This document shows positions 690 through 32,824 of a stretch of DNA of 34,282 nt, one piece after another. The notes under the pieces were generated by a model. That model searched no databases, had not been told where the DNA came from, and saw nothing but the letters and a program-made list of their open reading frames with translations. The translations under genes and the position numbers were made by a program. Source of the stretch: a virus (Duplodnaviria; Caudoviricetes); the IMG/VR virus record IMGVR_UViG_3300032331_002510, positions 1 through 34,282 of that record. One strand, 5' to 3'. Within the stretch, counting starts at the first letter, position 1. The number at the start of each line of letters is the position of its first letter.

Positions 690-986
690 ATGAATAACGA
701 CAACATCCTTGGTCACATCGTTGACAAACTGGCCCAGGTCAAAGCACAGATCGCCGACCTGAAAATCGACGAACAACTTCTCCGGCAAGACCTGATCGAG
801 TCAGGCGAGTCGGTGATCGAAGGCGTCTACCACAGGGCCGCGATCAGCGAGTCTGAAGGCAAAGTCACCGTCGACTGGAAAGCAATTGCAATGAAGTTTG
901 CGCCCAGTCGGCAATTGATCAAAGCCCACACCAGCCAAGGTGAGAGCTACACCACTGTCCGTATGTCTGCAAGGAAGTCAGTATGA
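690..986 (+). CDS. Hypothetical phage protein (N-terminal coiled coil)
   Basis: GGAG at 680-683 precedes ATG 690 (MNNDNILGHIVDKL...). The stop overlaps the next start (ATGA). Confidence 0.7.
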   Translation: MNNDNILGHIVDKLAQVKAQIADLKIDEQLLRQDLIESGESVIEGVYHRAAISESEGKVTVDWKAIAMKFAPSRQLIKAHTSQGESYTTVRMSARKSV

Positions 987-1519
987 AAAATCTAAACGAC
1001 GCCCTCTTGTTAGCCCTCAAGGCTCACAAGGGTCAAAGACGCAAGGGCACTGCGATCCCCTACATCGCACACCCCTTGGCGGTCACCGCCATTGCCCTGG
1101 AGTACGGTGCCGACGACGAACAGGCCGTTGCAGCAATGCTTCACGACGTGATTGAAGACGGCGGCATGCACTACGCTACTGTGATCAACGGTTACTTCGG
1201 CGACCGGGTTTTCAACATCGTGTCTGCACTGACTAACGTCGGGAAAGGCACTTGGCGTGAAAACAAAGTCGAGTACCTAGGCCGCTTGCGTGATGCAAGC
1301 GACGACGTGCTCCTGGTCGCTGGCGCTGACAAGCTGCACAACGCCCGTTCAATCCTGGCCGACGTACAGGCCCTGGGTGACGCGGCATTCAACAAATTCA
1401 AGGCAGGCAAAGACGACGTGCTCTGGTACTACGTCAGCCTGGCTGGAATATTCACTGTCCGTGACGCGCCCATGGCGTCGGACTTCAACGATATCGTTCA
1501 ACAACTAGGAGAGCTTTAA
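983..1519 (+). CDS. HD-domain small alarmone hydrolase (Mesh1/SpoT hydrolase-like)
   Basis: Motifs AHKGQRRKG-x-PYIAHP, AAMLHDVIED and ADKLHNARS match the RelA/SpoT HD hydrolase domain; no synthetase domain is attached. Confidence 0.9.
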   Translation: MKNLNDALLLALKAHKGQRRKGTAIPYIAHPLAVTAIALEYGADDEQAVAAMLHDVIEDGGMHYATVINGYFGDRVFNIVSALTNVGKGTWRENKVEYLGRLRDASDDVLLVAGADKLHNARSILADVQALGDAAFNKFKAGKDDVLWYYVSLAGIFTVRDAPMASDFNDIVQQLGEL

Positions 1520-1767
1520 TGGTCGCAAACTCAGAAACTCTGCTGCTCGTCACGCTGCCCAGCGCAAACCGGGCCGTGTATTCGGTGCAGCCGCAACACC
1601 TTCCCCGTGAAGGCATCCCAGGGTCCAATGAATGGCCAATTATGTGGGGCCAGCAAATAGCCCATGAGCTGGATGGCATCTGGTATCGGCCAGGAGGCTG
1701 GACCCCGATTGATGACCGCAAAGCAGTGGCTTTGCTCGAACGCTGCCCAATGGGGGTGACGCCATGA
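1519..1767 (+). CDS. Hypothetical protein
   Basis: GGAGAG SD and a TAATG overlap with the upstream gene. Confidence 0.6.
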   Translation: MVANSETLLLVTLPSANRAVYSVQPQHLPREGIPGSNEWPIMWGQQIAHELDGIWYRPGGWTPIDDRKAVALLERCPMGVTP

Positions 1768-15034: not shown

Positions 15035-15203
15035 TGACGATGACGATACCCAGGTCTACAAGAAGCCATGGGTCAGCTTGACAAAGGCGCAAAGGGAAGA
15101 GTGCATAACTCGAAGCGAGTACCACACAGCATGGTCGTCTGACATTGACCTGAACATTTTGATTGACGCGGTAAACGATAAGCTAAAGGAGCTAAACGCA
15201 TGA
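15027..15203 (+). CDS. Small hypothetical protein (58 aa, not in the ORF track)
   Basis: GGAG SD; MIDDDDDTQVYKKPWVSLT...KLKELNA* fills the gap and couples to the next gene. Confidence 0.6.
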   Translation: MIDDDDDTQVYKKPWVSLTKAQREECITRSEYHTAWSSDIDLNILIDAVNDKLKELNA

Positions 15204-15829
15204 GCTACATAGTGGCATCACTGCCCCCGATTAAGTGTTTTGTAAAAAAAGAATTTCTTTACAACTTTACCAAGGGCCACGGCGAACTAGAGTCTGCGGT
15301 TTGGGTCAGCATAAAAGGTCTTCGCGGCCAAGTGTTTAGGATCGAGTCGCTGCTGCCAGCTTACGGCGCGCTGTACGACAAGCTGCCCATACACGCATAC
15401 GTCTGGAAAGAAGACCACGGTGATTTGCCCATCGACTTTTTGCAGCTATGGGACTGCATGGGCTACCGGTTTACGGTTGTCGAGAAGATTGCTTTGCGCA
15501 ACCTGGGCGTGAAGTTTCTAGGCAAAGACAAGCAGTGGTATTACGGCAACTACTTGTTCACTGTGGATTTTTGTGCCGACGGCCAGGACCTGGACACGGG
15601 TTTTACCGAACAAGCTGAAGAGCACAAGTCGTTTAATTTCATACGCCTTGAGAACGGGCAGTTTGCCTGCCAGCCAAACAACCGGTGCCTGTGGTATGAC
15701 CAAAGCCTGGTTCCTTCTGAACCGAAGTTTCCCGACTTCCAGGCAGCGCAACATCTATGGTCGGTGGATGGCACGCGCAAGTGGAGCGCGGGCGACGATT
15801 GGTTTTATAGCATTCAAGAAAATGCGTAA
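15200..15829 (+). CDS. Conserved hypothetical phage protein
   Basis: 209 aa aromatic-rich ORF; AAGGAG SD. Confidence 0.75.
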   Translation: MSYIVASLPPIKCFVKKEFLYNFTKGHGELESAVWVSIKGLRGQVFRIESLLPAYGALYDKLPIHAYVWKEDHGDLPIDFLQLWDCMGYRFTVVEKIALRNLGVKFLGKDKQWYYGNYLFTVDFCADGQDLDTGFTEQAEEHKSFNFIRLENGQFACQPNNRCLWYDQSLVPSEPKFPDFQAAQHLWSVDGTRKWSAGDDWFYSIQENA

Positions 15830-16106
15830 GTCAACTCACGCAGACATCCGCTCTGCCTTGCGAGAAGAGCCTGATGGCTTGACTGCCTTCCAGGTAGCCC
15901 AGGCCACTGGCCTTGCAGCAGACTGTGTGCGCCAGGCGCTGCCCAACATGCCCGACGTGTACATCGACCGATGGGAGCAGCCAGCCAAGACCAAAGGCTA
16001 CAAAGGCAAAACCTGGCGGGCTGTGTACATCGCTGTGGTCGTACCACCAAACACAGCAAAGCCTAGTCTTTCTCCTCGCCCTCGACGGTCAAACCTTGAC
16101 GAATGA
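15822..16106 (+). CDS. Winged-HTH-like protein
   Basis: IRSALREEPDGLTAFQVAQATGL...VRQAL. Its 3' end overlaps the 3' end of the giant gene by 44 nt. Confidence 0.6.
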   Translation: MRKSTHADIRSALREEPDGLTAFQVAQATGLAADCVRQALPNMPDVYIDRWEQPAKTKGYKGKTWRAVYIAVVVPPNTAKPSLSPRPRRSNLDE

Positions 16107-19100
16107 ACTGCTTTTTCTGGCGCAGCTTTTCGCGCTCTGCCTCGCCTGTTGTGGGGCTGATGGCACCTTTGTTTTCCAAGCGTTGAGACTGTTTGATCTG
16201 CGCTTCCAATTCCCGGATAAGGGCTTTCGTTTGCGCCTTCTGAATCTTTTCTGAAGTGTCCAGGTCGATTGGCCTGGCCTTGATGCCGACAGTTTGCAAG
16301 GCCGCGTAGCCCGGTGTGATTGGCAGGCCGTCTTTGCCAATACCCGTGTACTCGGCCAGGCCCACGTTGACTGACTGGCCGGTTACATTTGCGATTACAT
16401 TCATGGCCCGCTCAAAGTGCGTGTTGCCCACAGCGATGGCCGGTGTCATTTGTTTCCACATCCAAGCCGCACGCTTTTGCGCAGCCTCGGCACTGGTATC
16501 CGTTTTCTTGACGATGTCCTGGCCACGGAACGTGTCCTTGTTAAAAAGCATGGCCGAGGCAATGGTCAAGATGGGGCTATTTGGCGTCAAAGGCGCAAGC
16601 ATAGGGATACCCCCTGCGTTATTGTGCGCGTCGAACAGATCGCCACCGGGGAAGATACGGCTGACATCAAGGAACACGGGCAAATTGGTCAGGTCGTCCA
16701 TGCCCAGGCGGATCGTCTTTTCTGTGCCTAGGGCCAGGCTTGCGCCCTTCATCCATTCGGGCAAGTTCTTGCGCTCTTGCTGCTCCAAGTCTTTAGACCG
16801 CTGGCGGAATTCTGGGTCGGTCATGTATCGACGAATGATGGTCCACCAGTCTTCGTCATCACCACCGCCAAGGCTTGCAGCAATGGCGTACATGGCCGCG
16901 TTTGCCACGTAAAGCGCAACGGCAGGGGCAGCATAGCGGACAGGGTGTTCAAGGGCTGTATTGACCAAGGCTGGCACGACCTTGTACGTATAGGCAAAGA
17001 ACGGCAAACCGACCGGCATGTCACGAATCACACGCGCGCCCTTGGGCATGTCGTCGTAAGAGAACATGTACTTCAGCGCGTAGTCAACCGAGTCGTCTAC
17101 GCTCAGGCCGTTGTTGCGCGCATCCCGGTAAATCACGTATCGGAAAAATTCGTCCTCGGCACCGTATGCTTTGCCCAGGGGTTTGCGCAGCCACAAAGAC
17201 AGGCCGTTCCAGACCATCTCGACAGCGCGCTTGCTTTTGCTCTCGGCCATCTGGGCCAAGACGCGCAGCTCTTCGGGCATGGCCTCGGTCAGCTCAGCGC
17301 GGTTAAACGTGCCGCCGAACAGACCGGCCTCTTTGGCTTCGTCCACCATTGCGTCGCCCTTGACCAGGTCCTTGATGGAGCCGATGTATTTGTGCGCGTC
17401 CCAGTAAGACACGCCAGCAAAGTGGGCCATCGTGATGTTCGACAGTACGTTGTTTGCGTGGGCCACTGGGTTGAGGACAGTCTTGCCCTCTTTCCACATC
17501 GACAAACCTTTCATGTAAATCTTGGTCAAGTCGTTTTGCATGTCGCTATCAAACGCAACCAACTGGTCCAAGATTTCACTTGGCACCCATTTACCGCCCA
17601 GCTTGCCGTAGCGCTTAGCAAACGTGTCTTCGACGTTGGTCGCGGGCACCTGAACATAGCCAGGCTGCTCTGTCTTGCTTGCGTAGGTTGCGGCCAGGTT
17701 TTCATACAAGCGGCCCAGTGCGATGTCGCGCTGGCTCTTGTTGTATCCCATGACAAAGCGGAACATGGCGTCGCGAATCTCGCCCATGTCGTCGCGCTCC
17801 GTCCTGGTGTAGTCGCGCCACACTGTGATCTCGGTATCAACCGCTGGATCGTAGGTAGCGTCGCGCACTGCCCAGCCCTCGGCTTCCCAGTCTGCCAGAT
17901 CAGCGACCGGTACAGTCTCAAACATGCCGCGCGCCTTGAGGCTGCTGCCCTTAATACCTTGCATGGTTTGTTTGCGGCCAAGCAATCCCTTGACTGCTTT
18001 CATCCAAGCCTTGGCTTCGTCGCCCAGTTTCTGTTCGTAAAAACGCGGCAGGTACTTGCCGTCCCAGCGGCCAGCGGCGTCTTTGGACAGCATGCCCAGG
18101 CGGACCAGCTCTGCCGATTGCTCAGACATGATGTCCTGCATAGACGCGGCAATCTCCAGCACTCGCTTGGGTGGCGTGGCACCGCGCTTGAGTTCGCCCT
18201 CGATCACATCGCTGATCATCTGGCGCTCTTGCTCGGGCAGGTCCTTCATGGACTTGGCTACATCGACCGTCAGGTTCTGTGCCTTGTCGACTTCCATGCG
18301 CATCTTGCGCATCGCACGGGACAGCTCTGGGCTGACCGGTTTCATGCCGACCACGTCCAGGACCGCGTTGGCCACGTCCGCTGCGTAACGGTATGCCTTG
18401 GCACCGGCACCGAAACGGAAGCGGCCCAGCTCATCACGGCTGAGCAACCAGCCCTCGGTCTCTTTACCAACCGGCTGGCGCTTGGCGAATGCGATAGGCG
18501 CGCCGGTGATGTCTGCCTCTTGGCCAAACGTTACGTTCTTGGCCAAGACCAGGGGACCGACCTGGATCACTTCGTCTGCGGCAAGCACAGGGCGCATGGT
18601 GTCGCGGTCGTAAAAGTAGCTGTGGCGGAACGGGTCCATGCCGACCTGGGTCCAGGCTGGGTCGTTTAGCGCAGCGTCGGCGCGGGCCTTGGCGTCAGCC
18701 TTGCTGATCGGTGACCACTTGCCAAGCATGGTGGCAATGGTGCCTTTGGCCGTGCCAGTAGCAATCCTTGCGGCCATCTTTTGGTTCATGCCAAAAGTGA
18801 CGTCGGTCAGCGCAGCCACGGACTCATACCCCACCACCGGGCCAGCGTCGTATGCGGCCTGGACTTCGCGGTTGGTTGACTTGGGCGTATGCACACTGAC
18901 CACCCAGGTGTCGTGCTCTTGGTAGGACGGAATGTCCAATCGGAGCTGCGCCCAGTCGCCCTTGATCAGGGTCATGGTTGGCACGCCATACTTGGCTGCC
19001 TTCTCGGCGCTTTGGCCACGGCCATTGGCCAGGGCGTATCGAGCGTCTTTGGGCGTCGTAACGGCGGGCACGGCGGCGTAGGGGTACACCGGTCGCGATT

Positions 19101-21219
19101 CGTCAACCATGCGGTTGTACTCATCCCTGGTAATATTGCCTGCTTGCAGGTCGGCCACGGCCTGCTGAAGCTCAGGCGTGCGCTTGAATCGCTCGGCGCT
19201 TGTACCTTCTACGCGACTGGCCGCTGCATTCTTTTGCTCGGCCCTGCTTGGCGGTTCGACTTTGCGGGCAACAATACCCAGGCCAACATCGCGCTCAGTT
19301 GCGTAACGGACTGGATTTTCCAAGGGGTACATGTACTTGACCTGGCCAGGGGCAATGTCAAACTTGGAGCCTTTAGGCACCAGGGTTTGATCGCGGTACT
19401 GGTCGAATTGCTTTTGGGTAGATACCCGGATCGGTTCACCGATGGTCACCGCGCCAATTGCTTTGGCCGGGCCGTCACCTGTGCGCACAATTGACACCCG
19501 TTTTCCGACGTATGGCCGGAGCGAGTCAGACGCCCTAGTCTCAAGTGTCTTTTCCCCGTCAATTATTTTGTCAGCGTACCGGTTTTCTCCGTCCTGGTTG
19601 ACGTTGATACCAGTGCTTTCAGATATAATAGGGGCGGAGGTTCCAATGACATTCGATTTCAAATCCCTTCCGCCCGGCACCATGTTCTTTGACTGGAACG
19701 GTGTACCCGTAACTGTCTCTGCTGGCTGGCGTTCTGCCACAGCCTGGGGACCAGAGCCTTCGCCGCGCAACCCTTCCGATGTACGCGAGAAAGGCGACCC
19801 GGTAGACAAAGCTGAATTCGAGCGCGTGTTCACCGCTTTTGCTGCTCTGCCTTCATACGCGCCTAAGCCTTCGGAGTAAATTTTTCTCTGAAGCTCGACC
19901 ATCTTGGTTTTGACTGGGCTGTCTGGCATCTCGCGTTCAAACGCGTAAATCTCATGGCCCAGGTGCTTGGCAGCCAGCATCTCGGGCGTGCTGATTTGAA
20001 TCTCAGCAACAGTGCCGTCAGGCAGTACGACGTTGGTCAGCACATCCTGGTAACCAGTGGGCAGGGGTTTGCCTTCTAAAGCCGCGCCTTTGTCGTTGAC
20101 CAGGTCAATCGACAATCGGTTTTTAATGCGGTCAAAGTCATACACTTTGCCGATTTTATTAATGGCGTCTTGGGCTTCTTCAAGCGTGTTGACAACAATC
20201 GTGCCGCGCAACAAGTCTTTGATTTCGTCGGTTTTCCAAAATGTTTCAGTGGCTAATTTGGTAACAGCTCGGTACGGCTTTTTGATGCCGGGCTTTTTGG
20301 CGTAACCATTAACTTCTTCACCAATGCGATCCAGGGTCTTATCAAATTCTGGCTTGTTACGTTTTGCCCCGTCGTACAACGGTTGAAGCAATTTCTCGCC
20401 AAGGGCGCGTTCTTTCTTTGTCAGGGGATCAGGCGGCTCGGCCTTCTTGTACTTGGCAATCGCGGCCTCGGCTGCTGCAATGGTCTCAGGCTTGAGCACG
20501 TCCTCCGGGTCCAGCCCTTGCGCACGGCTGAAGCGGATGTCCGGGTTGTTCGCGGCAAACGCGCCGGTGTTGCCGATGGCCGATTTTATTTGGGAGGGGT
20601 TGAACGCATTCCAAGTAAGATTTCCGCCTTCATACGCGCCTATCCCATCAAAGCCGGTAGTTTTTAAGAAATCAATAAAGGTGTCTGAAGCTAAAAATTC
20701 AAACGCGTTGCCTTCGTAATCCGGCTCAAAACCGATGTCACTTGGTTCAAACGTAGTTGCGTTCTCATCATTGATTCGGTTTAGCGCTTCTTCAACTGTT
20801 ACGTCATCCGACAGGTCTATGTCTTCGGGAATTAAAATTGGGTTTTCGATACGAAGAAAAACCGGCATAACCCTGGGGCTAGGACCCCCGGATTTCTCCG
20901 TGTACCCGTTAGCTGTGTATGGATTTTCTCCAAACCAAGAACCAAAATCCATGGTATCAAAGGTAGAAAAATCTTCAGCAGTGTCGGTTCCGTGGTAAAC
21001 CACCAGCGGCTTGCCCTGGCTGTCAACTACCTTGCTGTCACCGAACCATTGCTTAAACGCAGGGGTCTCGGTTTGCCTGGCGCTCAGCGCCACAGGCGCG
21101 CTAGGCAGCAGGTGTTCCAGGCCACCGCTGGCCAGGTAGGCTTTGAACGCGGCTTGGCCCTTGATAACCCGCTCTTTGCCGTCACGGTCGGTGAACCTGT
21201 ACGTGCAATCTTTCGCCAT
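16063..21219 (-). CDS. Large polyvalent virion/ejection protein (ART-like + RelA/SpoT-type synthetase + ASCH + unknown domain + helical C-terminal region)
   Basis: ART-PolyVal-like region (FKQWFGDSK...YHGT...GFDGI...QIKS) at about 20530-21075. Synthetase-like region (IKKPYRAVTK, DLLRGTI, GYQDVLTN, EIQIST, HEIY) at about 19900-20300. ASCH region (YADKIIDGEKTLETR) at about 19270-19610. Confidence 0.85.
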   Translation of the reverse strand: MAKDCTYRFTDRDGKERVIKGQAAFKAYLASGGLEHLLPSAPVALSARQTETPAFKQWFGDSKVVDSQGKPLVVYHGTDTAEDFSTFDTMDFGSWFGENPYTANGYTEKSGGPSPRVMPVFLRIENPILIPEDIDLSDDVTVEEALNRINDENATTFEPSDIGFEPDYEGNAFEFLASDTFIDFLKTTGFDGIGAYEGGNLTWNAFNPSQIKSAIGNTGAFAANNPDIRFSRAQGLDPEDVLKPETIAAAEAAIAKYKKAEPPDPLTKKERALGEKLLQPLYDGAKRNKPEFDKTLDRIGEEVNGYAKKPGIKKPYRAVTKLATETFWKTDEIKDLLRGTIVVNTLEEAQDAINKIGKVYDFDRIKNRLSIDLVNDKGAALEGKPLPTGYQDVLTNVVLPDGTVAEIQISTPEMLAAKHLGHEIYAFEREMPDSPVKTKMVELQRKIYSEGLGAYEGRAAKAVNTRSNSALSTGSPFSRTSEGLRGEGSGPQAVAERQPAETVTGTPFQSKNMVPGGRDLKSNVIGTSAPIISESTGINVNQDGENRYADKIIDGEKTLETRASDSLRPYVGKRVSIVRTGDGPAKAIGAVTIGEPIRVSTQKQFDQYRDQTLVPKGSKFDIAPGQVKYMYPLENPVRYATERDVGLGIVARKVEPPSRAEQKNAAASRVEGTSAERFKRTPELQQAVADLQAGNITRDEYNRMVDESRPVYPYAAVPAVTTPKDARYALANGRGQSAEKAAKYGVPTMTLIKGDWAQLRLDIPSYQEHDTWVVSVHTPKSTNREVQAAYDAGPVVGYESVAALTDVTFGMNQKMAARIATGTAKGTIATMLGKWSPISKADAKARADAALNDPAWTQVGMDPFRHSYFYDRDTMRPVLAADEVIQVGPLVLAKNVTFGQEADITGAPIAFAKRQPVGKETEGWLLSRDELGRFRFGAGAKAYRYAADVANAVLDVVGMKPVSPELSRAMRKMRMEVDKAQNLTVDVAKSMKDLPEQERQMISDVIEGELKRGATPPKRVLEIAASMQDIMSEQSAELVRLGMLSKDAAGRWDGKYLPRFYEQKLGDEAKAWMKAVKGLLGRKQTMQGIKGSSLKARGMFETVPVADLADWEAEGWAVRDATYDPAVDTEITVWRDYTRTERDDMGEIRDAMFRFVMGYNKSQRDIALGRLYENLAATYASKTEQPGYVQVPATNVEDTFAKRYGKLGGKWVPSEILDQLVAFDSDMQNDLTKIYMKGLSMWKEGKTVLNPVAHANNVLSNITMAHFAGVSYWDAHKYIGSIKDLVKGDAMVDEAKEAGLFGGTFNRAELTEAMPEELRVLAQMAESKSKRAVEMVWNGLSLWLRKPLGKAYGAEDEFFRYVIYRDARNNGLSVDDSVDYALKYMFSYDDMPKGARVIRDMPVGLPFFAYTYKVVPALVNTALEHPVRYAAPAVALYVANAAMYAIAASLGGGDDEDWWTIIRRYMTDPEFRQRSKDLEQQERKNLPEWMKGASLALGTEKTIRLGMDDLTNLPVFLDVSRIFPGGDLFDAHNNAGGIPMLAPLTPNSPILTIASAMLFNKDTFRGQDIVKKTDTSAEAAQKRAAWMWKQMTPAIAVGNTHFERAMNVIANVTGQSVNVGLAEYTGIGKDGLPITPGYAALQTVGIKARPIDLDTSEKIQKAQTKALIRELEAQIKQSQRLENKGAISPTTGEAEREKLRQKKQFIRQGLTVEGEEKD
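19646..19879 (+). CDS. Candidate nested antisense gene (77 aa), possible immunity protein
   Basis: TATAAT at 19624-19629, GGAGG at 19636-19640 and ATG at 19646. It occupies the linker after the synthetase domain. Confidence 0.5.
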   Translation: MTFDFKSLPPGTMFFDWNGVPVTVSAGWRSATAWGPEPSPRNPSDVREKGDPVDKAEFERVFTAFAALPSYAPKPSE

Positions 21220-21222
21220 GGC

Positions 21223-21714
21223 TTAACCGCCTAGTTCTTGGTCGATCAAGAGCATGCCAGCCTTGTCTTGGTCGACAAGGTCAATGCGCGCCAGCAGGTC
21301 GCCGTACTCGCCGACACTGGTGCGCTGGATTTCAAGGAATTGCAAAAGGAATTGTTGGACCACCGGATCGTCTGATGTCTCGCTGTACCACTCCTTGTAG
21401 TTGTTGTACAACTCCAGCTCGGTCTCATACCCAGTCTCGATGGCATCGCTGAGGGTCTCGATGGTGTCATTCATCGCCTCAATCATGGGCACCTTGGCCA
21501 CCGTACCTACGTCGTTCTGAAATTCAACGTGGCGCTGGTAATGCTCCAGCTCGTCCGCGCTTTCCTTGAGAAAGAATTTGGTTGCACCAAAGTACCCAAT
21601 TCGCTGGAGCTGATTGGCGATGTGCTTGTACAGGTTGGATGCGTACAGCTCGGAATGGACCGCTTCGTCCAGCATCTTTTTGCAGTCGGCGGAAATGATC
21701 ATTTTGGGTAGCAT
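21223..21714 (-). CDS. Ferritin (FtnA-like four-helix bundle)
   Basis: ELYASNLY, G..KFF..ES.DELEH, YETE and D....QFL..F...Q follow non-heme ferritin spacing. TAAGGA SD precedes ATG 21714. Confidence 0.85.
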   Translation of the reverse strand: MLPKMIISADCKKMLDEAVHSELYASNLYKHIANQLQRIGYFGATKFFLKESADELEHYQRHVEFQNDVGTVAKVPMIEAMNDTIETLSDAIETGYETELELYNNYKEWYSETSDDPVVQQFLLQFLEIQRTSVGEYGDLLARIDLVDQDKAGMLLIDQELGG

Positions 21715-21725
21715 GGCTTGGGTCC

Positions 21726-24700
21726 TTATTTGCAATTGATCTTAACCTTGTCCGCATCCTCAAGCTGGATCAAGATGTCGTTAAAATTTTCCTGGACATA
21801 TTTTATTTGCGCGCCGTCCGGGCGTGCAGTGAATGCAGCCTCGGCGCGTGTCTTGGCCAGGCCGCGTTTGGCCAGGTCTTCAAATATTTTCTTTAGCGGC
21901 TGTTTGACTACTTGGGTTGCATTGAACCGGTCGGTTCTTGCGCCAATGAAGTCTTCCCGTTCTTTTCCTTGGAACGGAACAGCGCCCCCAGTCGGCTTAC
22001 CGCTCGGTCCAGTTGCTCCGGTGTTTGGCTGGCCAGCCACTTGTCGTGCTCGTCCTGGTCCAGATTCGGCTGCTGTGCGTAATTGTTGTCCATCGAAACC
22101 TTCTTTCTGTAGTAGCGATTCTGCCGCACCTGCGTAGTCTTGGCTAGTCACCCGGAGTTTTACGCCCAAGTTTTTGTAGAGTTCTTGCTCTGGATACCAG
22201 ATCAAAGCCTGGAGCGCTGCCGGTGGCACGCGCTTGCCCGTCTGCTCCTCAACCATGACGACCATCTGGCGGACCACGTCACGGATAAGCTGGCGCTCAC
22301 CGCCGCTGCCGGGGGCGTCGGTTGGCTTGTCAGCCGACTTGATGATCGAATCGGCTGCGCCAATTAGGGATGTCTTAATCCGGGTGCCTGAGTCAAACGC
22401 AGCGCGCTCTTTTATGAATTGGCGGTTATGCAGGCTGCTTACCTGGCGGGCCAGGGCGATGGCCCCTTCGTCCGTCTCCATCGCAGCCTGGACGGCAGCC
22501 GGGTCAAACTGGGCAGCGTAAACACCCCTCTCGGCTGGGCCGGTTTCGGCCAGAGCGGCGCGCAGCTTGGCCACTTGCTTGGGAAACAGCACCGAGTCAA
22601 ACGCTGGCAAAGTCCCAGTCAGTCGACCAAGCGTGCGCATGAACCACATGTCCATTGTCACCGGCTCAAAGTTCCCGGCCAGGTTGCTGTAGAAACCAAA
22701 TCCGATCTTTGGCCCAAACACTGCTGACCCCAGCAAGTTTTCGTCCATCGACTCGCCGCCAATTTTGAAGCCGGACATCTCCAGTTCGCGTTTGGTAAAT
22801 GCGGTTTGCAAGAACCGGCCCATGTCATCCGCGCCAAACTCGGCCAACAACTTGTTTGCCAGGGAGAAGTTTTTGGCCATTGCGGGCGCTGACTTGCCGG
22901 TGCCAACTTCGGGAAACTTGCCTGTTTTGCGGAAAGCCTCGTACTGGGCAGACGCATAGCGCAGGTTGTCCTCGACATTCATCGTCTGTGACGAAATAGC
23001 AACAGAGATCAAAAATGCGTTGCGTGCATTTGGGTCGGAGTTCAGCTCGGGGTATTTGACCGCCATGATTCGTAGCGTTTTTGCAACAGTCTCGTCGTAC
23101 CATTCGACCGCGTTGCCTGCGCTGCGGATTGCCGCCACGGCCTCAGAAGCCATTAGTTTGGCCAGGGTGGTGCGGTCGCCAGCCTTCTTGATATTCAAAA
23201 CCGGCAGGCCAGAGGCCATACGTCTATTGGTCAACCATTGCACAACCTCGGGGATACCGCCGACTTTGGGCGTTTTGAACGTGTTGTCCCCGGTCTTGCC
23301 GGTCATCAGGGGCAGCATGCTGGCGTTGTATTCGGCAGCGGACATCTTGAGCTTGTCGGCCACGTCTTGGTACACGCCAGTGTCTTTCACCTCCGGCGCT
23401 GGTGGGCCAACCACTTCTTTTTTGCTAAAACGTATTTCGCTGCCGATGCGCTCCATCTCGGTGTTGGCCGCTTCCACTTGGCCCGCTGGAATCTCCAGGG
23501 TGCCCATGCGCATGCGCGAACCGGGGATGTTGCCGGTGTCGACCTGGCTGGCCTCGCGTGTCAGCAGGCCCTTCTTGAGGGTGGTAGGCGCGGCCTCGGC
23601 TGGCAGGGCTGCGGCCTGGGGCTGGCCGATCTGCTTGACAGGCACGGCCTTGTGTTTCTGGCCCAGCAGCACCACGGCTGATTGGCCATTACCAAACGGC
23701 GCGATGTAACCGTCAAACCCTGCATTGATGACCGCTGACTCGAACGCGTTTGCGTCGGCCTGCGGTTTGATCAGTCGAGTCTGTGGGTCGTAGATGTTGT
23801 CCAGCTTGGTTTCGTGTGCGTATCCGCCGACCCCGGATTCGGGGCGAATACCTGCGCCTTGGTCAACATAGAAGTAGACGCGGTTTTTAAGTCGAGGATC
23901 AGTGCTACTGTCCAGGCGAGTACGTTCTGCCCCTTTGAGTCCTTGTCCATAGTAGGCTCCACTTAGCGTCTGACGGGGAGTCGTTGAGTAGTGTCTGCCG
24001 ACAACGGAGATTGCGCCTGCTCTTGCGGTGCCGTAGCTTGGGGTCGGACCGCCCCCATCTTCGCTAAAGCCTGGTCGATCCTGCGCTGTTGGTCCTGGTA
24101 GGTTTTCACTTCCTGCTGCGGTAACGGTCGGTGCATTGATCTCTCCTTGCCGCAAGCTGGCGGCGGGTGCTGATTCAAACTGCTGAAGCGTTCCTTGGCG
24201 GTATGCGATCAGCGCTTCGCGTGCCACCATCTTAGCCTTGGCCAGGTCACGCACGTACTGATCAACTTTAGCAGATTCGGTTTCCCCTTGTGTGGGTTTA
24301 CCGCGCAAAGTGGACATCAGGTTGTCGATGACGCTTACCCACTTTTGCACAAAGCCTTTGAATCCGCCCGGATCAGCCTGGGCTACATCCGCCCAGAATG
24401 CTTTATCTGTGGCGCGGTTGCCCATGAAGTCGGCGGTCATCTCTGATCGCAAAAGCGGCGATTGCAGTAACTCTTGGATGCGACTTTCTTTTATGTCGGG
24501 CGTGGAGTCAAGAGCGGCCAGCTCTGCGGCATGCAGGAAGTTGGTGACGTAGGCGCGCTTACCCTCTTCGGTCATGTCGTCGAAGATGCTGTCGATCTGG
24601 GCCGTGAATTTCTGAGCTGACGTGTCGGTCAAACCAGCTTGCCGCTCGGTAAACGCGATCTGCTCAATCGTGTGCTTTAGCTCATGCAAAGACACCTTGC

Positions 24701-27314
24701 TGATGTTGGTCACCACGTTGGCTGTGTTGACAAAGGCAGTGCCGCCAACGGCCACACCCTGGACAGAACCAGGGCTGGTGTCGTGGAACGCGATAACGCG
24801 TGTACCAAACTGGCTGCCCAGCAGATTGGCTATGGTGCCGACAGCTCTGGTTTCGGCGTCAGGTGCAGGGTTTAACTTTGCAGGGATGGCCTGGCCATTG
24901 TCGACGGCCCAACGGTCCAGAGATCGTTGCGCATCTGCTCGTACTGTTTCGTTGTCAAGGACTGGCTGATTACCGACATCCCGCACTGGCGCTGTTCCGA
25001 GGGTTTGTTCTGTTCCAGGGAGTGGGGGGATTGAAACAGCCGGGGTACTTGGCGCAACTCCAGATTTGGCTGTGAATGTAATGGTGCCATCTTCGTTCTC
25101 CGTTTGATCAAACTGACTGGCCAATGCGCGTCTGTCGCGGATCGGCATTGCGCCCAGCTCTTCGGGCGTGAGTGTGCGGGTCTCGGGCGCAAGCGGGGTA
25201 ATCGAGACCGTGCTCGGTGTGGCTGTCTGCTGGGGTGCTGCACGTTGAGTAAACGCGCCAGCCTCATCCTGACGCGCGGTCAGCTCGATTGCTGCACTGC
25301 GGCGAGAGATAGGGGCGACGGTCTCATCGCCAGTGATCGCCTGGAGCTGGTCGTCGGACAGGTTAGTGACCGGGGTGCCCTGAATGCTGCGCGGCCTGGG
25401 CGCGTTGATGCGCAGCTTGTCTAGGCCAAACTGCTGTTCGGTTTCTGTGCTGATCTCCGGGGCCGGTTCAACGGCGGTTTGAGTACCAAGATCAAACCCA
25501 GGCAACGATCCTGCGTCAAACCCTGGCCCAGCGCGGCCTACAGAAGGGGTCATTTCGCCCACCTGGAAGGTTGCCCTAGGGGGTAGGGGCGTGATCGCGT
25601 TCTCGGGCACCAGAAGCTCGTTTAACGAACCGGACAGGTTATCTGCCGCTGCGGCTGCGGCGTCTGCCGTGGTTGATTGCTGAAGGCTAGTCTGGTCCTG
25701 CTGGACTTTGGCTGTCTGGTAGGGCTTGATGAGCGCGGCATCGTAGGACTGCACGTCCAGGGCGCGGCGGGCAAAGGCGTCGATTGCTGCCGGGTCAAAC
25801 TGGCCACCGGCTACGTCACCGGCAAATGCGTCGGCAAAGGCGCGCTCAGGGCTTACTTCCAGCAGCTTGCGCGCGATAGGCGCGGCTACGCGGCCAGCGC
25901 CACCCATAACCAAAGTCTGAGCGGTTGTTTGATAGAACGTGTCGCCAACGGCTTTGAGGTAATCGCCAAGGGTCGCGTTGGGGGTTAGGCCAAACGGTGT
26001 CCACTTGTCCGTGCCAAATTGCATGGCAGTCGTAACTTGCTCGGATAAATTTTCTTTAACCAAGTACCGGGCAAACACCGGCATGATCTCGTCGGCGGGT
26101 ACGCCTTTGACCAAGTCTTTGAAGCCTTTGATAAAAGGAGCCGGTAAGCTGGCGCGTTCGCCGACCCATTCAGCAACACCCATAAACGCCGCACGCGGAA
26201 GCGCTTCGCCCATGGTTTGGCCAGCGGCTTTACCGTTGCCGTATTCCTCAGCAAAGGTTTGCGCAACGGCGGCGGTAACCCCCAGGCCAGGGTTTACCAA
26301 GTACGGCGCAAAGTTGTTGATCGCGCCAGCGACGCCGGTTTCAATAAAGTTCAACGCGGCGTTAGGGTTTTCACCAATCGCTTCTAGTTTTGCTTTAGCT
26401 GCTTTTTGCTGAACGGCGTTGCCACTGGACAGCTTTGCGCCCACATCTGCCAATTGCGTGGAGCCTGCCAAATCTCCTGTCGATTCAAGCGTGTCGCCGA
26501 TAAGTTGCCAAGCGCCGGACGCAGCAGATTGGAACGTCCCGGCTACTTTGCCACCGACCGCTTTGCCCGCGCCCACCAGTTGCTCAAAACCCGTGGGCTG
26601 TATTGTGCGCGCCCTAATTAAACCTTCGGTCTCTTCCAGCGCCATTCTGCCTTCAGGGCGTTTGTACTCATCTTTGGCGGCAAAATCAAACGTCGAAGGT
26701 TTGGCTTCGCTAAAGCGTTGGGGTGTTGCCCCGGTTGCGGCGTCTTGCGCTGCAAGAGCATCAGCAGATTCGATGTCTCGGCCCTGGGCGATGTACGCGT
26801 CCCGGCGGACTTCTCGGCGGGTATCAAAACCGCGCAAGGAGGGAAGCTGTTGGGGATTGGCTTCGCGGTATTGCTTGTCAATGGTTTGGAATACCTGGCC
26901 CTCAAAACCTTTGTTTTGCACCAGGGCCTGACGTTCTTTGGGAGTCGCCGCGTCGTACTGTTGTTTTAGGGCCGTGAATTTTTCTTCCGAAACTGGGGCA
27001 CCGCGACGGTCGATAAGTGGGGCTTGCGGTGGCGGCGCTACACCCTCCAGCACACTGGTGCGCTTAGGCGTAGCAGCGGCCATGATGGCCGCGCCAAAGT
27101 CATCCCCGCTTGGGCTGTACTCTGTTGAAACTTCAGGCGCGGCTGCGGCCTGGCGCACGGGGGCCGCGCGCGGCTGCTGGATGTCTACCTTGAACGGGGT
27201 GACGTCGCGCCGCCCTTGGGGCTTAGCCGCTTCAGACTCGACGGCATAGCTTGACCACCACTCGTCCTTCGACTCGTCAGCCGGAGCGTAAGTTTCCCAC
27301 CATTCTTTTGCCAT
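21726..27314 (-). CDS. Large polyvalent virion/ejection protein (zincin metallopeptidase + ART-like + HhH DNA-glycosylase-like)
   Basis: HELKH at 24672-24686 with a downstream EMTAD. RHYS...RVYFY...GFDGY at about 23650-24010. WY...S.Q...N, GPKIG.FY.NL.G, VTMDMWFMR and QALIW at about 22170-23120. Confidence 0.8.
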   Translation of the reverse strand: MAKEWWETYAPADESKDEWWSSYAVESEAAKPQGRRDVTPFKVDIQQPRAAPVRQAAAAPEVSTEYSPSGDDFGAAIMAAATPKRTSVLEGVAPPPQAPLIDRRGAPVSEEKFTALKQQYDAATPKERQALVQNKGFEGQVFQTIDKQYREANPQQLPSLRGFDTRREVRRDAYIAQGRDIESADALAAQDAATGATPQRFSEAKPSTFDFAAKDEYKRPEGRMALEETEGLIRARTIQPTGFEQLVGAGKAVGGKVAGTFQSAASGAWQLIGDTLESTGDLAGSTQLADVGAKLSSGNAVQQKAAKAKLEAIGENPNAALNFIETGVAGAINNFAPYLVNPGLGVTAAVAQTFAEEYGNGKAAGQTMGEALPRAAFMGVAEWVGERASLPAPFIKGFKDLVKGVPADEIMPVFARYLVKENLSEQVTTAMQFGTDKWTPFGLTPNATLGDYLKAVGDTFYQTTAQTLVMGGAGRVAAPIARKLLEVSPERAFADAFAGDVAGGQFDPAAIDAFARRALDVQSYDAALIKPYQTAKVQQDQTSLQQSTTADAAAAAADNLSGSLNELLVPENAITPLPPRATFQVGEMTPSVGRAGPGFDAGSLPGFDLGTQTAVEPAPEISTETEQQFGLDKLRINAPRPRSIQGTPVTNLSDDQLQAITGDETVAPISRRSAAIELTARQDEAGAFTQRAAPQQTATPSTVSITPLAPETRTLTPEELGAMPIRDRRALASQFDQTENEDGTITFTAKSGVAPSTPAVSIPPLPGTEQTLGTAPVRDVGNQPVLDNETVRADAQRSLDRWAVDNGQAIPAKLNPAPDAETRAVGTIANLLGSQFGTRVIAFHDTSPGSVQGVAVGGTAFVNTANVVTNISKVSLHELKHTIEQIAFTERQAGLTDTSAQKFTAQIDSIFDDMTEEGKRAYVTNFLHAAELAALDSTPDIKESRIQELLQSPLLRSEMTADFMGNRATDKAFWADVAQADPGGFKGFVQKWVSVIDNLMSTLRGKPTQGETESAKVDQYVRDLAKAKMVAREALIAYRQGTLQQFESAPAASLRQGEINAPTVTAAGSENLPGPTAQDRPGFSEDGGGPTPSYGTARAGAISVVGRHYSTTPRQTLSGAYYGQGLKGAERTRLDSSTDPRLKNRVYFYVDQGAGIRPESGVGGYAHETKLDNIYDPQTRLIKPQADANAFESAVINAGFDGYIAPFGNGQSAVVLLGQKHKAVPVKQIGQPQAAALPAEAAPTTLKKGLLTREASQVDTGNIPGSRMRMGTLEIPAGQVEAANTEMERIGSEIRFSKKEVVGPPAPEVKDTGVYQDVADKLKMSAAEYNASMLPLMTGKTGDNTFKTPKVGGIPEVVQWLTNRRMASGLPVLNIKKAGDRTTLAKLMASEAVAAIRSAGNAVEWYDETVAKTLRIMAVKYPELNSDPNARNAFLISVAISSQTMNVEDNLRYASAQYEAFRKTGKFPEVGTGKSAPAMAKNFSLANKLLAEFGADDMGRFLQTAFTKRELEMSGFKIGGESMDENLLGSAVFGPKIGFGFYSNLAGNFEPVTMDMWFMRTLGRLTGTLPAFDSVLFPKQVAKLRAALAETGPAERGVYAAQFDPAAVQAAMETDEGAIALARQVSSLHNRQFIKERAAFDSGTRIKTSLIGAADSIIKSADKPTDAPGSGGERQLIRDVVRQMVVMVEEQTGKRVPPAALQALIWYPEQELYKNLGVKLRVTSQDYAGAAESLLQKEGFDGQQLRTAAESGPGRARQVAGQPNTGATGPSGKPTGGAVPFQGKEREDFIGARTDRFNATQVVKQPLKKIFEDLAKRGLAKTRAEAAFTARPDGAQIKYVQENFNDILIQLEDADKVKINCK
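21908..22093 (-). CDS. Candidate nested out-of-frame gene (61 aa)
   Basis: AGAAGG SD 5 nt before ATG 22093. MDNNYAQQPNLDQDEHDKWLASQTPEQLDRAVSRLGALF... lies over a Gly/Pro-rich linker. Confidence 0.35.
   Translation of the reverse strand: MDNNYAQQPNLDQDEHDKWLASQTPEQLDRAVSRLGALFRSKEKNGKTSLAQEPTGSMQPK
23963..24136 (-). CDS. Candidate nested out-of-frame gene (57 aa)
   Basis: AAGGAG SD 6 nt before ATG 24136. MHRPLPQQEVKTYQDQQRRIDQALAKMG... lies over a Gly/Pro-rich linker. Confidence 0.4.
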   Translation of the reverse strand: MHRPLPQQEVKTYQDQQRRIDQALAKMGAVRPQATAPQEQAQSPLSADTTQRLPVRR

Positions 27315-30476: not shown

Positions 30477-30917
30477 TTAAATTCCTCTTACGTATGAAAG
30501 GGTAACGGTCTCCCTGGTAAAACCAAGGTGTTTAAAAAAGCGAATCAAACGTGGGTCTACGTCTGGTTCCAAACTAAGCACAGCCACTTTGATCGCCGAC
30601 CGACCTTTGACCCATTCAGCGAATTCGCGTATCAGTTTGAGACCTGCACCCTTGACCAGGGAGTAGTACAAAAGCACTGAGCACTGCATCTTGTCGTACC
30701 AAAAACTTTTCTGCACGCAAGCACCGAACACTGCAACCACTTTGCCATCTTCGTCTTCTGCAACCCAGGCGAAGTGCGCTGGGTTGATACAAGCCTGGGC
30801 CATGCGCGCCATCGCCTCGCGGTCGATGTTGACCGGCAAAGGGTTGTTTGACACGGAGATCACCGCTATCTCTACGATAGCTGGAATGTCCTGGAATTTT
30901 GCTTTTCTGTAGATCAT
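30477..30917 (-). CDS. GNAT-family acetyltransferase-like protein
   Basis: MIYRKAKFQDIPAI...WVAE.E.GKVV...G.G.KLI...FFKHLGF. Confidence 0.75.
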   Translation of the reverse strand: MIYRKAKFQDIPAIVEIAVISVSNNPLPVNIDREAMARMAQACINPAHFAWVAEDEDGKVVAVFGACVQKSFWYDKMQCSVLLYYSLVKGAGLKLIREFAEWVKGRSAIKVAVLSLEPDVDPRLIRFFKHLGFTRETVTLSYVRGI

Positions 30918-32824
30918 GGGACGATGGGCGGAATGGTGGATTTGTAAAACGTATTGGCCCAACTAATCTGGGCGTTTGCGTAGTCAACCAATTTAGTGAT
31001 TGCGCCAGTTTGTGCAGTCGAGTCTAAAGTCGCGTCAGCCATGATTGCGTTTACACCGGCCATTGTCGTATTGCTTATTTGCGCCGCAAACGCAGCCGGA
31101 ATCCTTTGCTGGTCCCCTGCGAGTTGCAGGCCAAGCCTCGTAGCCTGAGCGACGTTATCAGCGGTTTGCACAGCGGTTTGCTGGCTGCGATCAAGCACAG
31201 CTTGAGCACTAGCAAAATTCTGTCTTGCCGTTTCCAAAGACGCTTGAGAAGCGAGGCTCTTGTCAGTGAGGGCCACTTGGTTAGCGCGATCAAGAGCGGA
31301 TTGAGCGCTGGCAAAAGTCTGCTGTGCAGTTTGCAAAGTCGCTTGCTGGGCGCGGTCAAGTACGGCTTGATCTTTGGCAAAATTCTGTCTTGCAGTTTCC
31401 AAGGCCGCTGTAGCGGTGATGCTCTTATCAGATATAGACACCTGAGTAGCACGGTCAAGTTCGGCTTGGGTTTTTGCAAAAGTCTGCTGCGCGGTTTGCA
31501 AAGCCGTTTGTTGAGTACGATCAAGTTTGGCTTGCTCAGTAGCAAAATCTTCTTTTGCTTTTTCTAAAGCCGCCGTAGCGGTAATGCTCTTGTCAGTTAG
31601 AGACGTTTGCTGTGCGCGATCTAGTGCGGCTTGTGCGCTGGCAAATGTCTGTTGACCTGTTTGCAAACTGGCAGTCGATTCCTGGCGTGACTTTTCCAGG
31701 GCTTGTGCAGCGGTGATGCTTTTGTCCGCCAACATGATCTGGGTCGCGCGGTCTTTATCTGCTTGCGTAGCCTGAGACGCCTGGGCTGCTGTTGCCAAGT
31801 CTGTTTGCTGGGTGCGGTCCAGCGCGCTTTGGCCAGCGGTAAATTCTTGGCGCGCTTTCTCCAAAGCCGATGTAGCGGTGATGCTTTTGTCCGCCAACAT
31901 GATCTGGGTTGCGCGGTCCTTCTCGCTTTGACTTGCTTGGAAAGCCTGCACTGAATTCGCCAGGTCGGTCTGTTGATTGCGGTCCAGCGCGCTCTGGCCA
32001 GCAGTAAATTCTTGGCGTGCTTTTTCGAGAGCTTGCGTGGCGGTGATGCTTTTGTCCGCCAACATGATCTGGGTTGCGCGGTCTTTCTCGCTCTGGCTTG
32101 CTTGGAAAGCCTGCACTGAATTCGCCAGGTCGGTCTGTTGATTGCGGTCCAGCGCGCTCTGGCCAGCAACAAAAGTTTGCTGACTGGTTTGGAGAGCTGT
32201 TTGCTGCGCCCGGTCCAGCGCGCTTTGGCCAGCAGCAAAAGTTTGCTGACCGGTTTGGAGAGCTGTTTGTTGTTCGCGGTTAAGCGAATTCTGGGCGGCG
32301 TCGAAATTCTGCTGGGCCTTGGCCAGGTTGGACGTGGCTTCCACGCTCTTGTCCGTAAGGGCTGTCTGCTGCGCGCGATCCAGTTGGGCCTGGGCAGCCT
32401 GGAAATTCTGAGTGACCTGTGTTTGGCCAGCGGCAAATGCCTGCTGATTGCCCAACAGGCCAAATTGGTTTTCCTCTTTTACATTACCCAAGCCAACCTG
32501 GTTTTGGTTGTTCAAGTTTGTGAGGGCACGGTTGGAGAACGTATTCGCGTCAGCAGTGGCAATTGGGATGGCGCGGTCCAGCATGGCCGCGACACCGGCA
32601 CCCTGGTTGATGGAGCTGTTGACCAGGCCGCGCGCGGCCATGCCCTGGGTCGCCTGAGTGCGGGCCTGCTGCATCAGTGGGTTGTCCTGGGCCATGATGC
32701 CCTGGAGCTGGCCAGACACTGTCTCTGTCGGCTTGTCCACCTGGGACGTTACAGCCTGGAAAGTTTTGGCCTGGTTCGCCGGGGCGTTAGCGTTGCCTAC
32801 GTCGAAAGGGTTTGTTGTAGCCAT
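30914..32824 (-). CDS. Ala/Gln-rich repeat coiled-coil virion protein
   Basis: Built from 22- and 33-aa LDR/KDR modules; GGAG SD. Confidence 0.75.
   Translation of the reverse strand: MATTNPFDVGNANAPANQAKTFQAVTSQVDKPTETVSGQLQGIMAQDNPLMQQARTQATQGMAARGLVNSSINQGAGVAAMLDRAIPIATADANTFSNRALTNLNNQNQVGLGNVKEENQFGLLGNQQAFAAGQTQVTQNFQAAQAQLDRAQQTALTDKSVEATSNLAKAQQNFDAAQNSLNREQQTALQTGQQTFAAGQSALDRAQQTALQTSQQTFVAGQSALDRNQQTDLANSVQAFQASQSEKDRATQIMLADKSITATQALEKARQEFTAGQSALDRNQQTDLANSVQAFQASQSEKDRATQIMLADKSITATSALEKARQEFTAGQSALDRTQQTDLATAAQASQATQADKDRATQIMLADKSITAAQALEKSRQESTASLQTGQQTFASAQAALDRAQQTSLTDKSITATAALEKAKEDFATEQAKLDRTQQTALQTAQQTFAKTQAELDRATQVSISDKSITATAALETARQNFAKDQAVLDRAQQATLQTAQQTFASAQSALDRANQVALTDKSLASQASLETARQNFASAQAVLDRSQQTAVQTADNVAQATRLGLQLAGDQQRIPAAFAAQISNTTMAGVNAIMADATLDSTAQTGAITKLVDYANAQISWANTFYKSTIPPIVP
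31170..32440. repeat. Intragenic tandem repeats (66/99/165 bp units)
   Basis: CGGTGATGCTTTTGTCCGCCAACATGATCTGGGT starts at 31711, 31876 and 32041, a 165-bp period. Confidence 0.85.

Follow-up and report, generated by a model that had tools for sequence, protein, structure and literature searches.

An alarmone synthetase domain in a predicted virion protein of a tailed phage, and an unlinked hydrolase as its candidate antidote

The occurrence, in one phage genome, of a RelA/SpoT-type synthetase domain inside a giant predicted virion protein and of a stand-alone alarmone hydrolase about 18 kb away raises the question of whether the two genes act together and, if they do, on which nucleotide. 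The genome is IMG/VR record IMGVR_UViG_3300032331_002510, a member of the Caudoviricetes; the stretch analysed, called the window hereafter, is the whole record of 34,282 bases, which CheckV rates as 62% complete. The original prediction made from these letters held that the phage may inject an alarmone pulse with its DNA and later erase it with its own hydrolase. The best explanation we can offer, in which confidence and doubt are about evenly balanced, rests on sequence comparison and a structure model: the domain would be a virion-delivered synthetase of the Apk clade making (p)ppApp and perhaps (p)ppGpp, and the unlinked, exchangeable hydrolase would be the phage's own antidote.

The synthetase domain covers amino acids (aa) 264-463, at 19831..20430, of a polyvalent protein of 1,718 aa, P0001, whose open reading frame (ORF) runs from 16063 to 21219 on the minus strand. 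All four motifs of the RelA/SpoT homologue (RSH) family that had been read in the giant protein are indeed there, within aa 312-425: IKKPYRAVTK (aa 312-321, nucleotides 20286-20257), DLLRGTI (aa 335-341, 20217-20197), GYQDVLTN (aa 389-396, 20055-20032) and EIQIST (aa 406-411, 20004-19987), the last being followed by H422 and Y425. They supply the residues expected of an RSH synthetase, namely a basic syn1 helix (K313/R317/K321), D335 in syn2, Y390 in syn3 and E406/Q408 in syn4. Taken alone, the stretch reaches 28.0 bits with Pfam RelA_SpoT (PF04607), for which the cut-off is 27 (E 2.8e-6); P0001 in full scores 22.8 bits. Tas1 (6OX6) is the best sequence match in the PDB (E 3e-5; 1.7e-8 and 1.6e-11 with profiles) and the sole solved structure matched by sequence with E below 0.01. 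An AlphaFold2 model of the domain (predicted local distance difference test score 93.5) matches RSH synthetases, with Tas1 first and SaEAS second in Foldseek. The sequence also bears out the view that the domain is not degenerate. A homologue search retained 106 proteins out of 1,193 candidates, and in these together with the query (n=107) K313, R317, K321, D335, R338, Y390, D392, E406, Q408 and H422 never change. A profile search reached 1,495 clusters at E values of at most 0.001, a total that likely takes in other Apk/EAS-type proteins; in a wider alignment of 174 domains, made of seven close ones and of distant matches that span 120 or more profile positions, no sequence departs from D335, E406 or H422, and the catalytic residues are kept down to about 31-40% identity. 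The ratio of nonsynonymous to synonymous substitution rates (dN/dS) is 0.12-0.16 in six pairs with relatives, which is purifying selection. By sequence and by modelled fold, the domain belongs to the Tas1/Apk/EAS branch of RelA/SpoT-type synthetases and is intact, and presumably active.

The protein that carries it has the build of a phage polyvalent protein: conflict domains of several unrelated kinds share one polypeptide, in cassettes that vary across 78 close homologues. Ahead of the synthetase lies an ART-PolyVal ADP-ribosyltransferase domain (aa 66-221, 20557..21024; Pfam 73.8 bits), an optional cassette covered in 49 of the 78; behind it come an ASCH-like stretch (aa 546-593, 19441..19584), under the Pfam cut-off and likewise optional (54/78), a Phage_L5_gp82-like stretch (aa 791-885, 18565..18849), also under the cut-off, and a conserved C-terminus of 779 aa (16066..18402), which served as the family marker in this analysis. 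That RelA/SpoT-like domains occur in phage polyvalent proteins, as the original prediction stated, is documented in PMC5512222 and agrees with the ART-PolyVal match in P0001. The ORF is the last of the structural-strand run, and in a complete relative, G009, one strand bears in order terminase, portal, capsid, tail, lysozyme, GNAT and giant ORFs, which places the protein among late virion genes. PMC5512222 predicts packaging of such polyvalent proteins; P0001, a predicted internal virion or ejection protein, probably enters the virion and is injected along with the phage DNA. In a close relative the same giant protein contains a RelA/SpoT-like cassette of a third kind, very divergent and 17% identical (L085:9-569).

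The candidate antidote is encoded at 983..1519 on the plus strand and is a stand-alone small alarmone hydrolase of 178 aa. It had been described as a complete Mesh1-like HD hydrolase; completeness stands, since HD_4 matches it whole with 67 bits, but RelH of Leptospira levettii (7QOE, E 2e-38) is far closer than metazoan Mesh1 (E 1e-7), RelH of Corynebacterium glutamicum (7QOC) following at 1e-22 and Aph1 reaching only 1.5e-5. H30, H54-D55, E58-D59, D116 and N120 are unchanged in six of six sequences, and dN/dS is about 0.1 (two pairs). The gene occupies a variable slot between DUF932 and a helix-turn-helix gene, in what is probably the early region.

Relatives were gathered through the conserved C-terminus of the giant protein, independently of both genes, which gave 72 viral and 37 metagenome loci; 50 of the longest viral records were then searched whole, 46 from the marker scan and four from the synthetase and hydrolase scans. 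Thirteen of them are at least 90% complete, and of these four have both genes, one (G009) has the synthetase only, eight have neither and none has the hydrolase only (Fisher p 0.007, uncorrected for kinship). A capsid scan yielded 80 loci, mostly fragments, of which 15 were searched; it added a single record at least 90% complete, G090, with neither gene, so that the 14 near-complete relatives comprise four with both, one with the synthetase only, nine with neither and none with the hydrolase only. Hidden divergent synthetases were sought with PF04607 in nine negative records and none was seen (G019 as positive control), and a two-family profile revealed no hidden hydrolase in 41 records, in a run without positive control, the same profile having matched in another run. 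For a tree of the marker, 23 of 60 rows were kept and 37 fragments dropped, one state being unreadable in each; the rows are the 13 near-complete records, seven partial ones with both genes (the window included) and three partial negatives with a spanned slot (G022, G030, G033), in which the upstream giant ORF is partly covered and of which G030 leans on the near-identical G051 for its state. This tree holds 11 records with both genes, 11 with neither and one with the synthetase only, and six changes per trait, a cassette-like pattern of gain and loss; G017, the sister of the window, has neither gene, and neither have G030 and G033 (both partial), which fall with G017 within the window's clade. 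Co-occurrence is therefore biased: the hydrolase is met in related phages only alongside the synthetase, and it is accordingly likely to be the phage's own antidote. The pairing that had been expected across relatives proves non-random within the family and yet not obligatory, as will be seen below, which is suggestive of a bias and not of a rule.

The comparison with other lineages suggests a stronger sign of coupling than these counts, in the form of an exchange of partners. G025, G029, G031, G046 and the metagenome locus L171 combine a divergent synthetase (31-39% identical to that of the window in the four that were aligned), located either in the giant ORF upstream or in a fused one, with a different hydrolase. 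For two of these hydrolases that were searched, Aph1 (7SMG) is the best PDB match (E 2e-13 and 7e-18). The Aph1 signature D24/D116/R119 is entire in L171 and in G068, a phage of another group; G029 has D24 and R119, G025 and G031 have D24 only, and the G046 hydrolase is cut at its N-terminus. Aph1 is (p)ppApp-specific, with no detectable (p)ppGpp activity (PMC10083569). Two hydrolase families are thus each found only alongside a synthetase, wherever both regions are readable, and the same synthetase subfamily goes with both, one of them pointing to (p)ppApp.

If the two genes do act together, the giant protein would be a late product that is packaged in the virion and enters the host with the DNA; the injected synthetase would make (p)ppApp, perhaps (p)ppGpp, and slow host metabolism at entry; the hydrolase would clear the product after injection, letting phage replication proceed, and would also protect late, during the synthesis of new copies of the giant protein. 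Such late protection explains the pairing as well as the erasure of an injected pulse does. The timed switch of the original prediction is one version of this. In a fuller form, podovirus-like phages without integrase would inject a (p)ppApp synthetase of the subfamily described below as D-x-L in their ejection protein, stall the host and drain its ATP during DNA entry, until an early hydrolase, recruited at least two times from different families, ends the pulse; this scheme is put forward tentatively, and we hold it to be rather unlikely. An integrase or recombinase was found in none of the five near-complete relatives searched.

A number of observations weigh against a coupled, (p)ppApp-making pair, and they are given here with the alternatives that they favour. 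Some concern the coupling itself. G009 is complete, has the synthetase and lacks an HD hydrolase; four of six near-complete synthetase-positive phages of other groups lack a hydrolase as well (G062, G063, G064, G067), and so does G061, which is 89% complete. The other two of the six are G068, with a stand-alone Aph1-like enzyme, and G065, whose HD domain sits in the synthetase's own 4,894-aa frame. The independent-pairs test finds four pairs on supported branches, three to four of them concordant and none opposite, and is not significant (p 0.125-0.25), and the 23-row set is biased, since its seven partial positives entered because both genes were seen. Moreover, stand-alone phage hydrolases are common alone: they neutralise many toxic small alarmone synthetases (toxSAS) and outnumber synthetases in prophages (PMC7229694), and hydrolases are also reported from jumbo phages and from a lytic Pakpunavirus. 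The hydrolase could then be an independent gene for counter-defence or against the stringent response, directed at host alarmones, and its co-occurrence with the synthetase, 18 kb away, could come from ancestry and a shared host niche. Set against this are the absence of hydrolase-only records among the 14 near-complete relatives, the two hydrolase families that each keep company with a synthetase, and the members of the window's own clade that are without both genes; we regard an independent hydrolase as unlikely. What G009, G062-G064 and G067 rule out is an obligate pairing. Their lack of a hydrolase implies that a phage can bear the synthetase when this antidote is missing, perhaps because the full-length protein has low activity or because a host hydrolase or some other inhibitor steps in, and the antidote gene would be helpful and not essential. 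As an observation apart, the frame of G065 joins the synthetase subfamily and an HD hydrolase-like domain in one protein (G065:C1:49216-49812 and 55603-55926).

Other observations concern the product. Syn2 of the domain reads R338-G-T340, the Apk-type RxT (T in 144 and S in 28 of the 174 wider-set domains), and the acceptor loop of syn3 reads D392-V-L394, or D-x-L, within a pattern GY-x-D-x-L/K-x-N whose D is kept in 169 of 174. The published Apk signature is RxT at syn2 and GxN at syn3, motifs whose swapping left specificity unchanged (PMC12226406). GYQDVL aligns with GYSGVN of Tas1 and GYKGLN of SaEAS, so that D-V-L stands opposite G-V-N of Tas1 where GxN would be expected and N396 lies two residues beyond; the resemblance to the Tas1/Apk branch noted in the original prediction holds for RxT and for closest kinship, and fails for its "Y-x(n)-N", which is not the Apk GxN. 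Nor does the domain have the features of canonical Rel, RelP and RelQ enzymes, RGT and DVL standing in place of an AVR-type syn2 and an SxH syn3, and the SxH guanine-recognition motif is absent from the syn3 patterns listed for the 174 sequences. A C-terminal H-x-x-Y motif is common to the domain, Tas1 and SaEAS. This motif and the syn3 mismatch together imply an Apk/EAS-like way of working in an enzyme that falls outside Apk by the published signature; and, RxT being present while D-x-L is neither SxH nor GxN, sequence does not fix the product. On the side of the hydrolase, the nearest kin, RelH-Ll and RelH-Cg, both hydrolyse (p)ppGpp (PMC9293644); the Aph1 signature is replaced by R20, R122 and L125 in an alignment with the 7SMG stretch, and Arg stands at the D24 position in six of six hydrolases of this type. 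Within the Apk/EAS clade some enzymes make (p)ppApp only, some (p)ppGpp only and some both, VpEAS and AaEAS of the same broad clade being restricted to (p)ppGpp (PMC12691689), and in VIA-align the model ties with RelP, RelQ and Tas1 at Z scores of 15.9-17.0 (Tas1 15.9). With the Apk syn3 signature lacking and the window hydrolase RelH-like, (p)ppApp is a likely product and no more than that, perhaps made together with (p)ppGpp.

These same points would suit a coupled pair acting on (p)ppGpp, in which the domain, once injected, would imitate a stringent response, as PMC5512222 proposed for polyvalent RelA/SpoT domains, and the RelH-like enzyme would bring it to an end. The missing SxH argues otherwise, as does the pairing of the same subfamily elsewhere with hydrolases like Aph1; and several Arg-type hydrolases cleave (p)ppApp as well (PMC10083569), which takes weight from the arginine. 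We hold a pair working on (p)ppGpp to be quite unlikely.

It may also be asked whether the D-x-L loop marks a different acceptor altogether, which could be an unusual nucleotide or, as with FaRel2 and CapRel, the 3' end of a tRNA or another RNA. D392, near-constant in the wider set, is unlike Apk and Rel motifs alike, and an acidic side chain at this place could make a triphosphate acceptor less favourable; ASCH folds bind RNA, and an ASCH-like stretch lies downstream of the synthetase. That stretch is, however, an optional cassette, no sequence match to tRNA-modifying enzymes was obtained, and the VIA-align Z scores are lower for CapRel (12.1) and the FaRel/ATfaRel2 entry 8PU1 (7.7) than for Tas1. 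The tRNA-pyrophosphorylating toxSAS (FaRel2, CapRel, PhRel) are characterised by a small positive patch at the acceptor site and by tRNA-binding N-terminal residues (PMC11782079). A different acceptor of either sort appears improbable on this evidence. As for a domain that is catalytically dead or serves nucleotide binding only, synthetase-positive phages without any hydrolase would fit, yet invariant catalytic residues at such low identity and the dN/dS values make it very improbable indeed.

The coupled, virion-delivered synthetase with its own antidote is a variation on systems already known, namely polyvalent RelA/SpoT domains with predicted injection, adjacent Apk2-Aph1 and stand-alone phage hydrolases. 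Closest is Apk2-IapK-Aph1, a MuF toxin system of temperate phages (PMC10083569, PMC12226406), which likewise fuses an Apk-clade synthetase with RxT at syn2 to a predicted virion protein and uses an HD alarmone hydrolase as antidote. In Apk2, however, the carrier is MuF, iapK and aph1 are adjacent and syn3 is GxN, whereas here the domain is internal to a polyvalent protein of 1,700-3,900 aa without MuF match in P0001, the hydrolase is remote, the ORF is followed by no gene in its own orientation, nothing resembling IapK was identified, the loop is DxL and the relatives searched are without integrase or recombinase match. The polyvalent RelA/SpoT domains of Iyer et al. 2017 (PMC5512222) share the architecture class and the idea of an alarmone made on injection; they come from Spirochaetes and from epsilonproteobacterial (pro)phages, the nucleotide is assumed to be (p)ppGpp or one related to it, and a paired hydrolase is not mentioned in the accessible text. 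Tas1/Apk1 (6OX6) and SaEAS (8VX3; PMC12691689) are the best matches and delivered enzymes too, with RxT (Tas1) and H-x-x-Y, but they rely on secretion systems and have a GxN loop, and Tas1 is held in check by an immunity protein that binds it; polyvalent proteins are not among the five export domains that PMC12691689 lists. RelH (7QOE, 7QOC; PMC9293644) and the hydrolases of PVP-SE1 and SSU5 (PMC7229694) agree in HD motifs and size, the phage ones being unlinked to a toxin, but the latter are read as counters to toxSAS of hosts or rivals and not as working together with a synthetase that the phage itself encodes. No literature describing a D-x-L subfamily, or a polyvalent protein whose synthetase is paired with an unlinked hydrolase, was found in a search that left most subscription papers outside, and members of the family may be present already in the 1,369-sequence set of PMC12691689 or in the files of PMC5512222.

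The synthetases described here make up a large uncharacterised subfamily whose acceptor loop shows a third motif, and they could help in learning what sets alarmone specificity. Whether phage alarmone synthetases are carried in the virion and injected, and why, is left open in the accessible text of the Apk2 papers (PMC10083569), and the present family offers a testable case outside temperate MuF systems, with natural relatives having both genes, one or neither. It also indicates a route to finding antidotes encoded away from their toxin, and a second reading for stand-alone phage hydrolases; if the timed switch is true, a virion-delivered toxin would have a separate early antidote gene acting as a timer.

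Directly after the hydrolase gene, an 82-aa ORF of no known family (1519..1767, plus strand; no Pfam or Atlas match) often stands beside hydrolase genes. It is present in four of the five near-complete synthetase-positive relatives, G009 among them, and in none of the eight negative ones, which made it a candidate binding immunity protein; we give this role low odds, as the ORF also occurs in all four near-complete synthetase-negative phages of another group, itself found through the ORF, and is therefore not specific to synthetase-positive phages. A complex prediction scored 0.00, which is evidence neither way. The ORF adjoins either type of hydrolase, and is seen in G009, where there is no hydrolase, and in phages of 36-38 kb that lack both genes. 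Two RelH-like hydrolase genes stand in tandem on a fragment of a large phage (G054:C1:39601-40678), the second without the E-D catalytic pair; the fragment gave no synthetase match.

Elsewhere the window encodes DUF932, a helicase, a primase, a DUF2800 nuclease, an ssDNA-binding protein and DNA polymerase A, and then, on the minus strand, lysozyme, GNAT and the two giant ORFs (1,862 and 1,718 aa), which a ferritin-like gene separates; its complete relatives measure 52-58 kb. A close cultured phage or a close record in a phage collection was not found, isolates giving weak matches only (Bordetella PHB04, Sinorhizobium phages). A PADLOC defence scan gave no matches, a promoter scan of the G009 region matching the window found nothing, and no RNA run screened contained a share of words above 0.09. 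One relative lies on a 6-kb contig within a Burkholderiales bin, too weak a basis for host assignment. A possible culturable source is a Methylobacterium jeotgali contig with a phage-like run of genes, where an ORF of 1,067 aa (L263:7700-10903) contains a relative of the synthetase domain. The GNAT gene (30477-30962) matches PHROG "internal virion protein" weakly, which speaks for the virion context of the giant proteins; just upstream of it a protein of 636 aa (30914-32824) contains many Gln- and Ala-rich imperfect repeats of about 22 aa and has no family match. At 15200-15829, an ORF of 209 aa without Pfam match corresponds to phrog_3704, labelled ferredoxin, and recurs in G025.

The upstream giant protein P0002 (1,862 aa, 21726..27314, minus strand) is the ORF in which other lineages carry the synthetase cassette, and the ferritin-like gene (21223..21735, minus strand) marks the split between it and P0001. 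Among 35 marker loci, 26 have the ferritin-like gene together with an upstream ORF that ends in (V/I)(K/E)INC(K/D)-stop, one of these stopping at the Cys, and in 25 of the 26 the downstream ORF begins M-x(1-3)-C-(T/K/N)-Y; the corresponding ends in the window are at 21726-21740 and 21205-21219. The remaining nine loci have a single ORF of more than 3,000 aa, without ferritin and without either Cys motif. The two terminal cysteines may rejoin the halves of the giant protein via a disulfide or a metal, perhaps helped by the ferritin-like protein.

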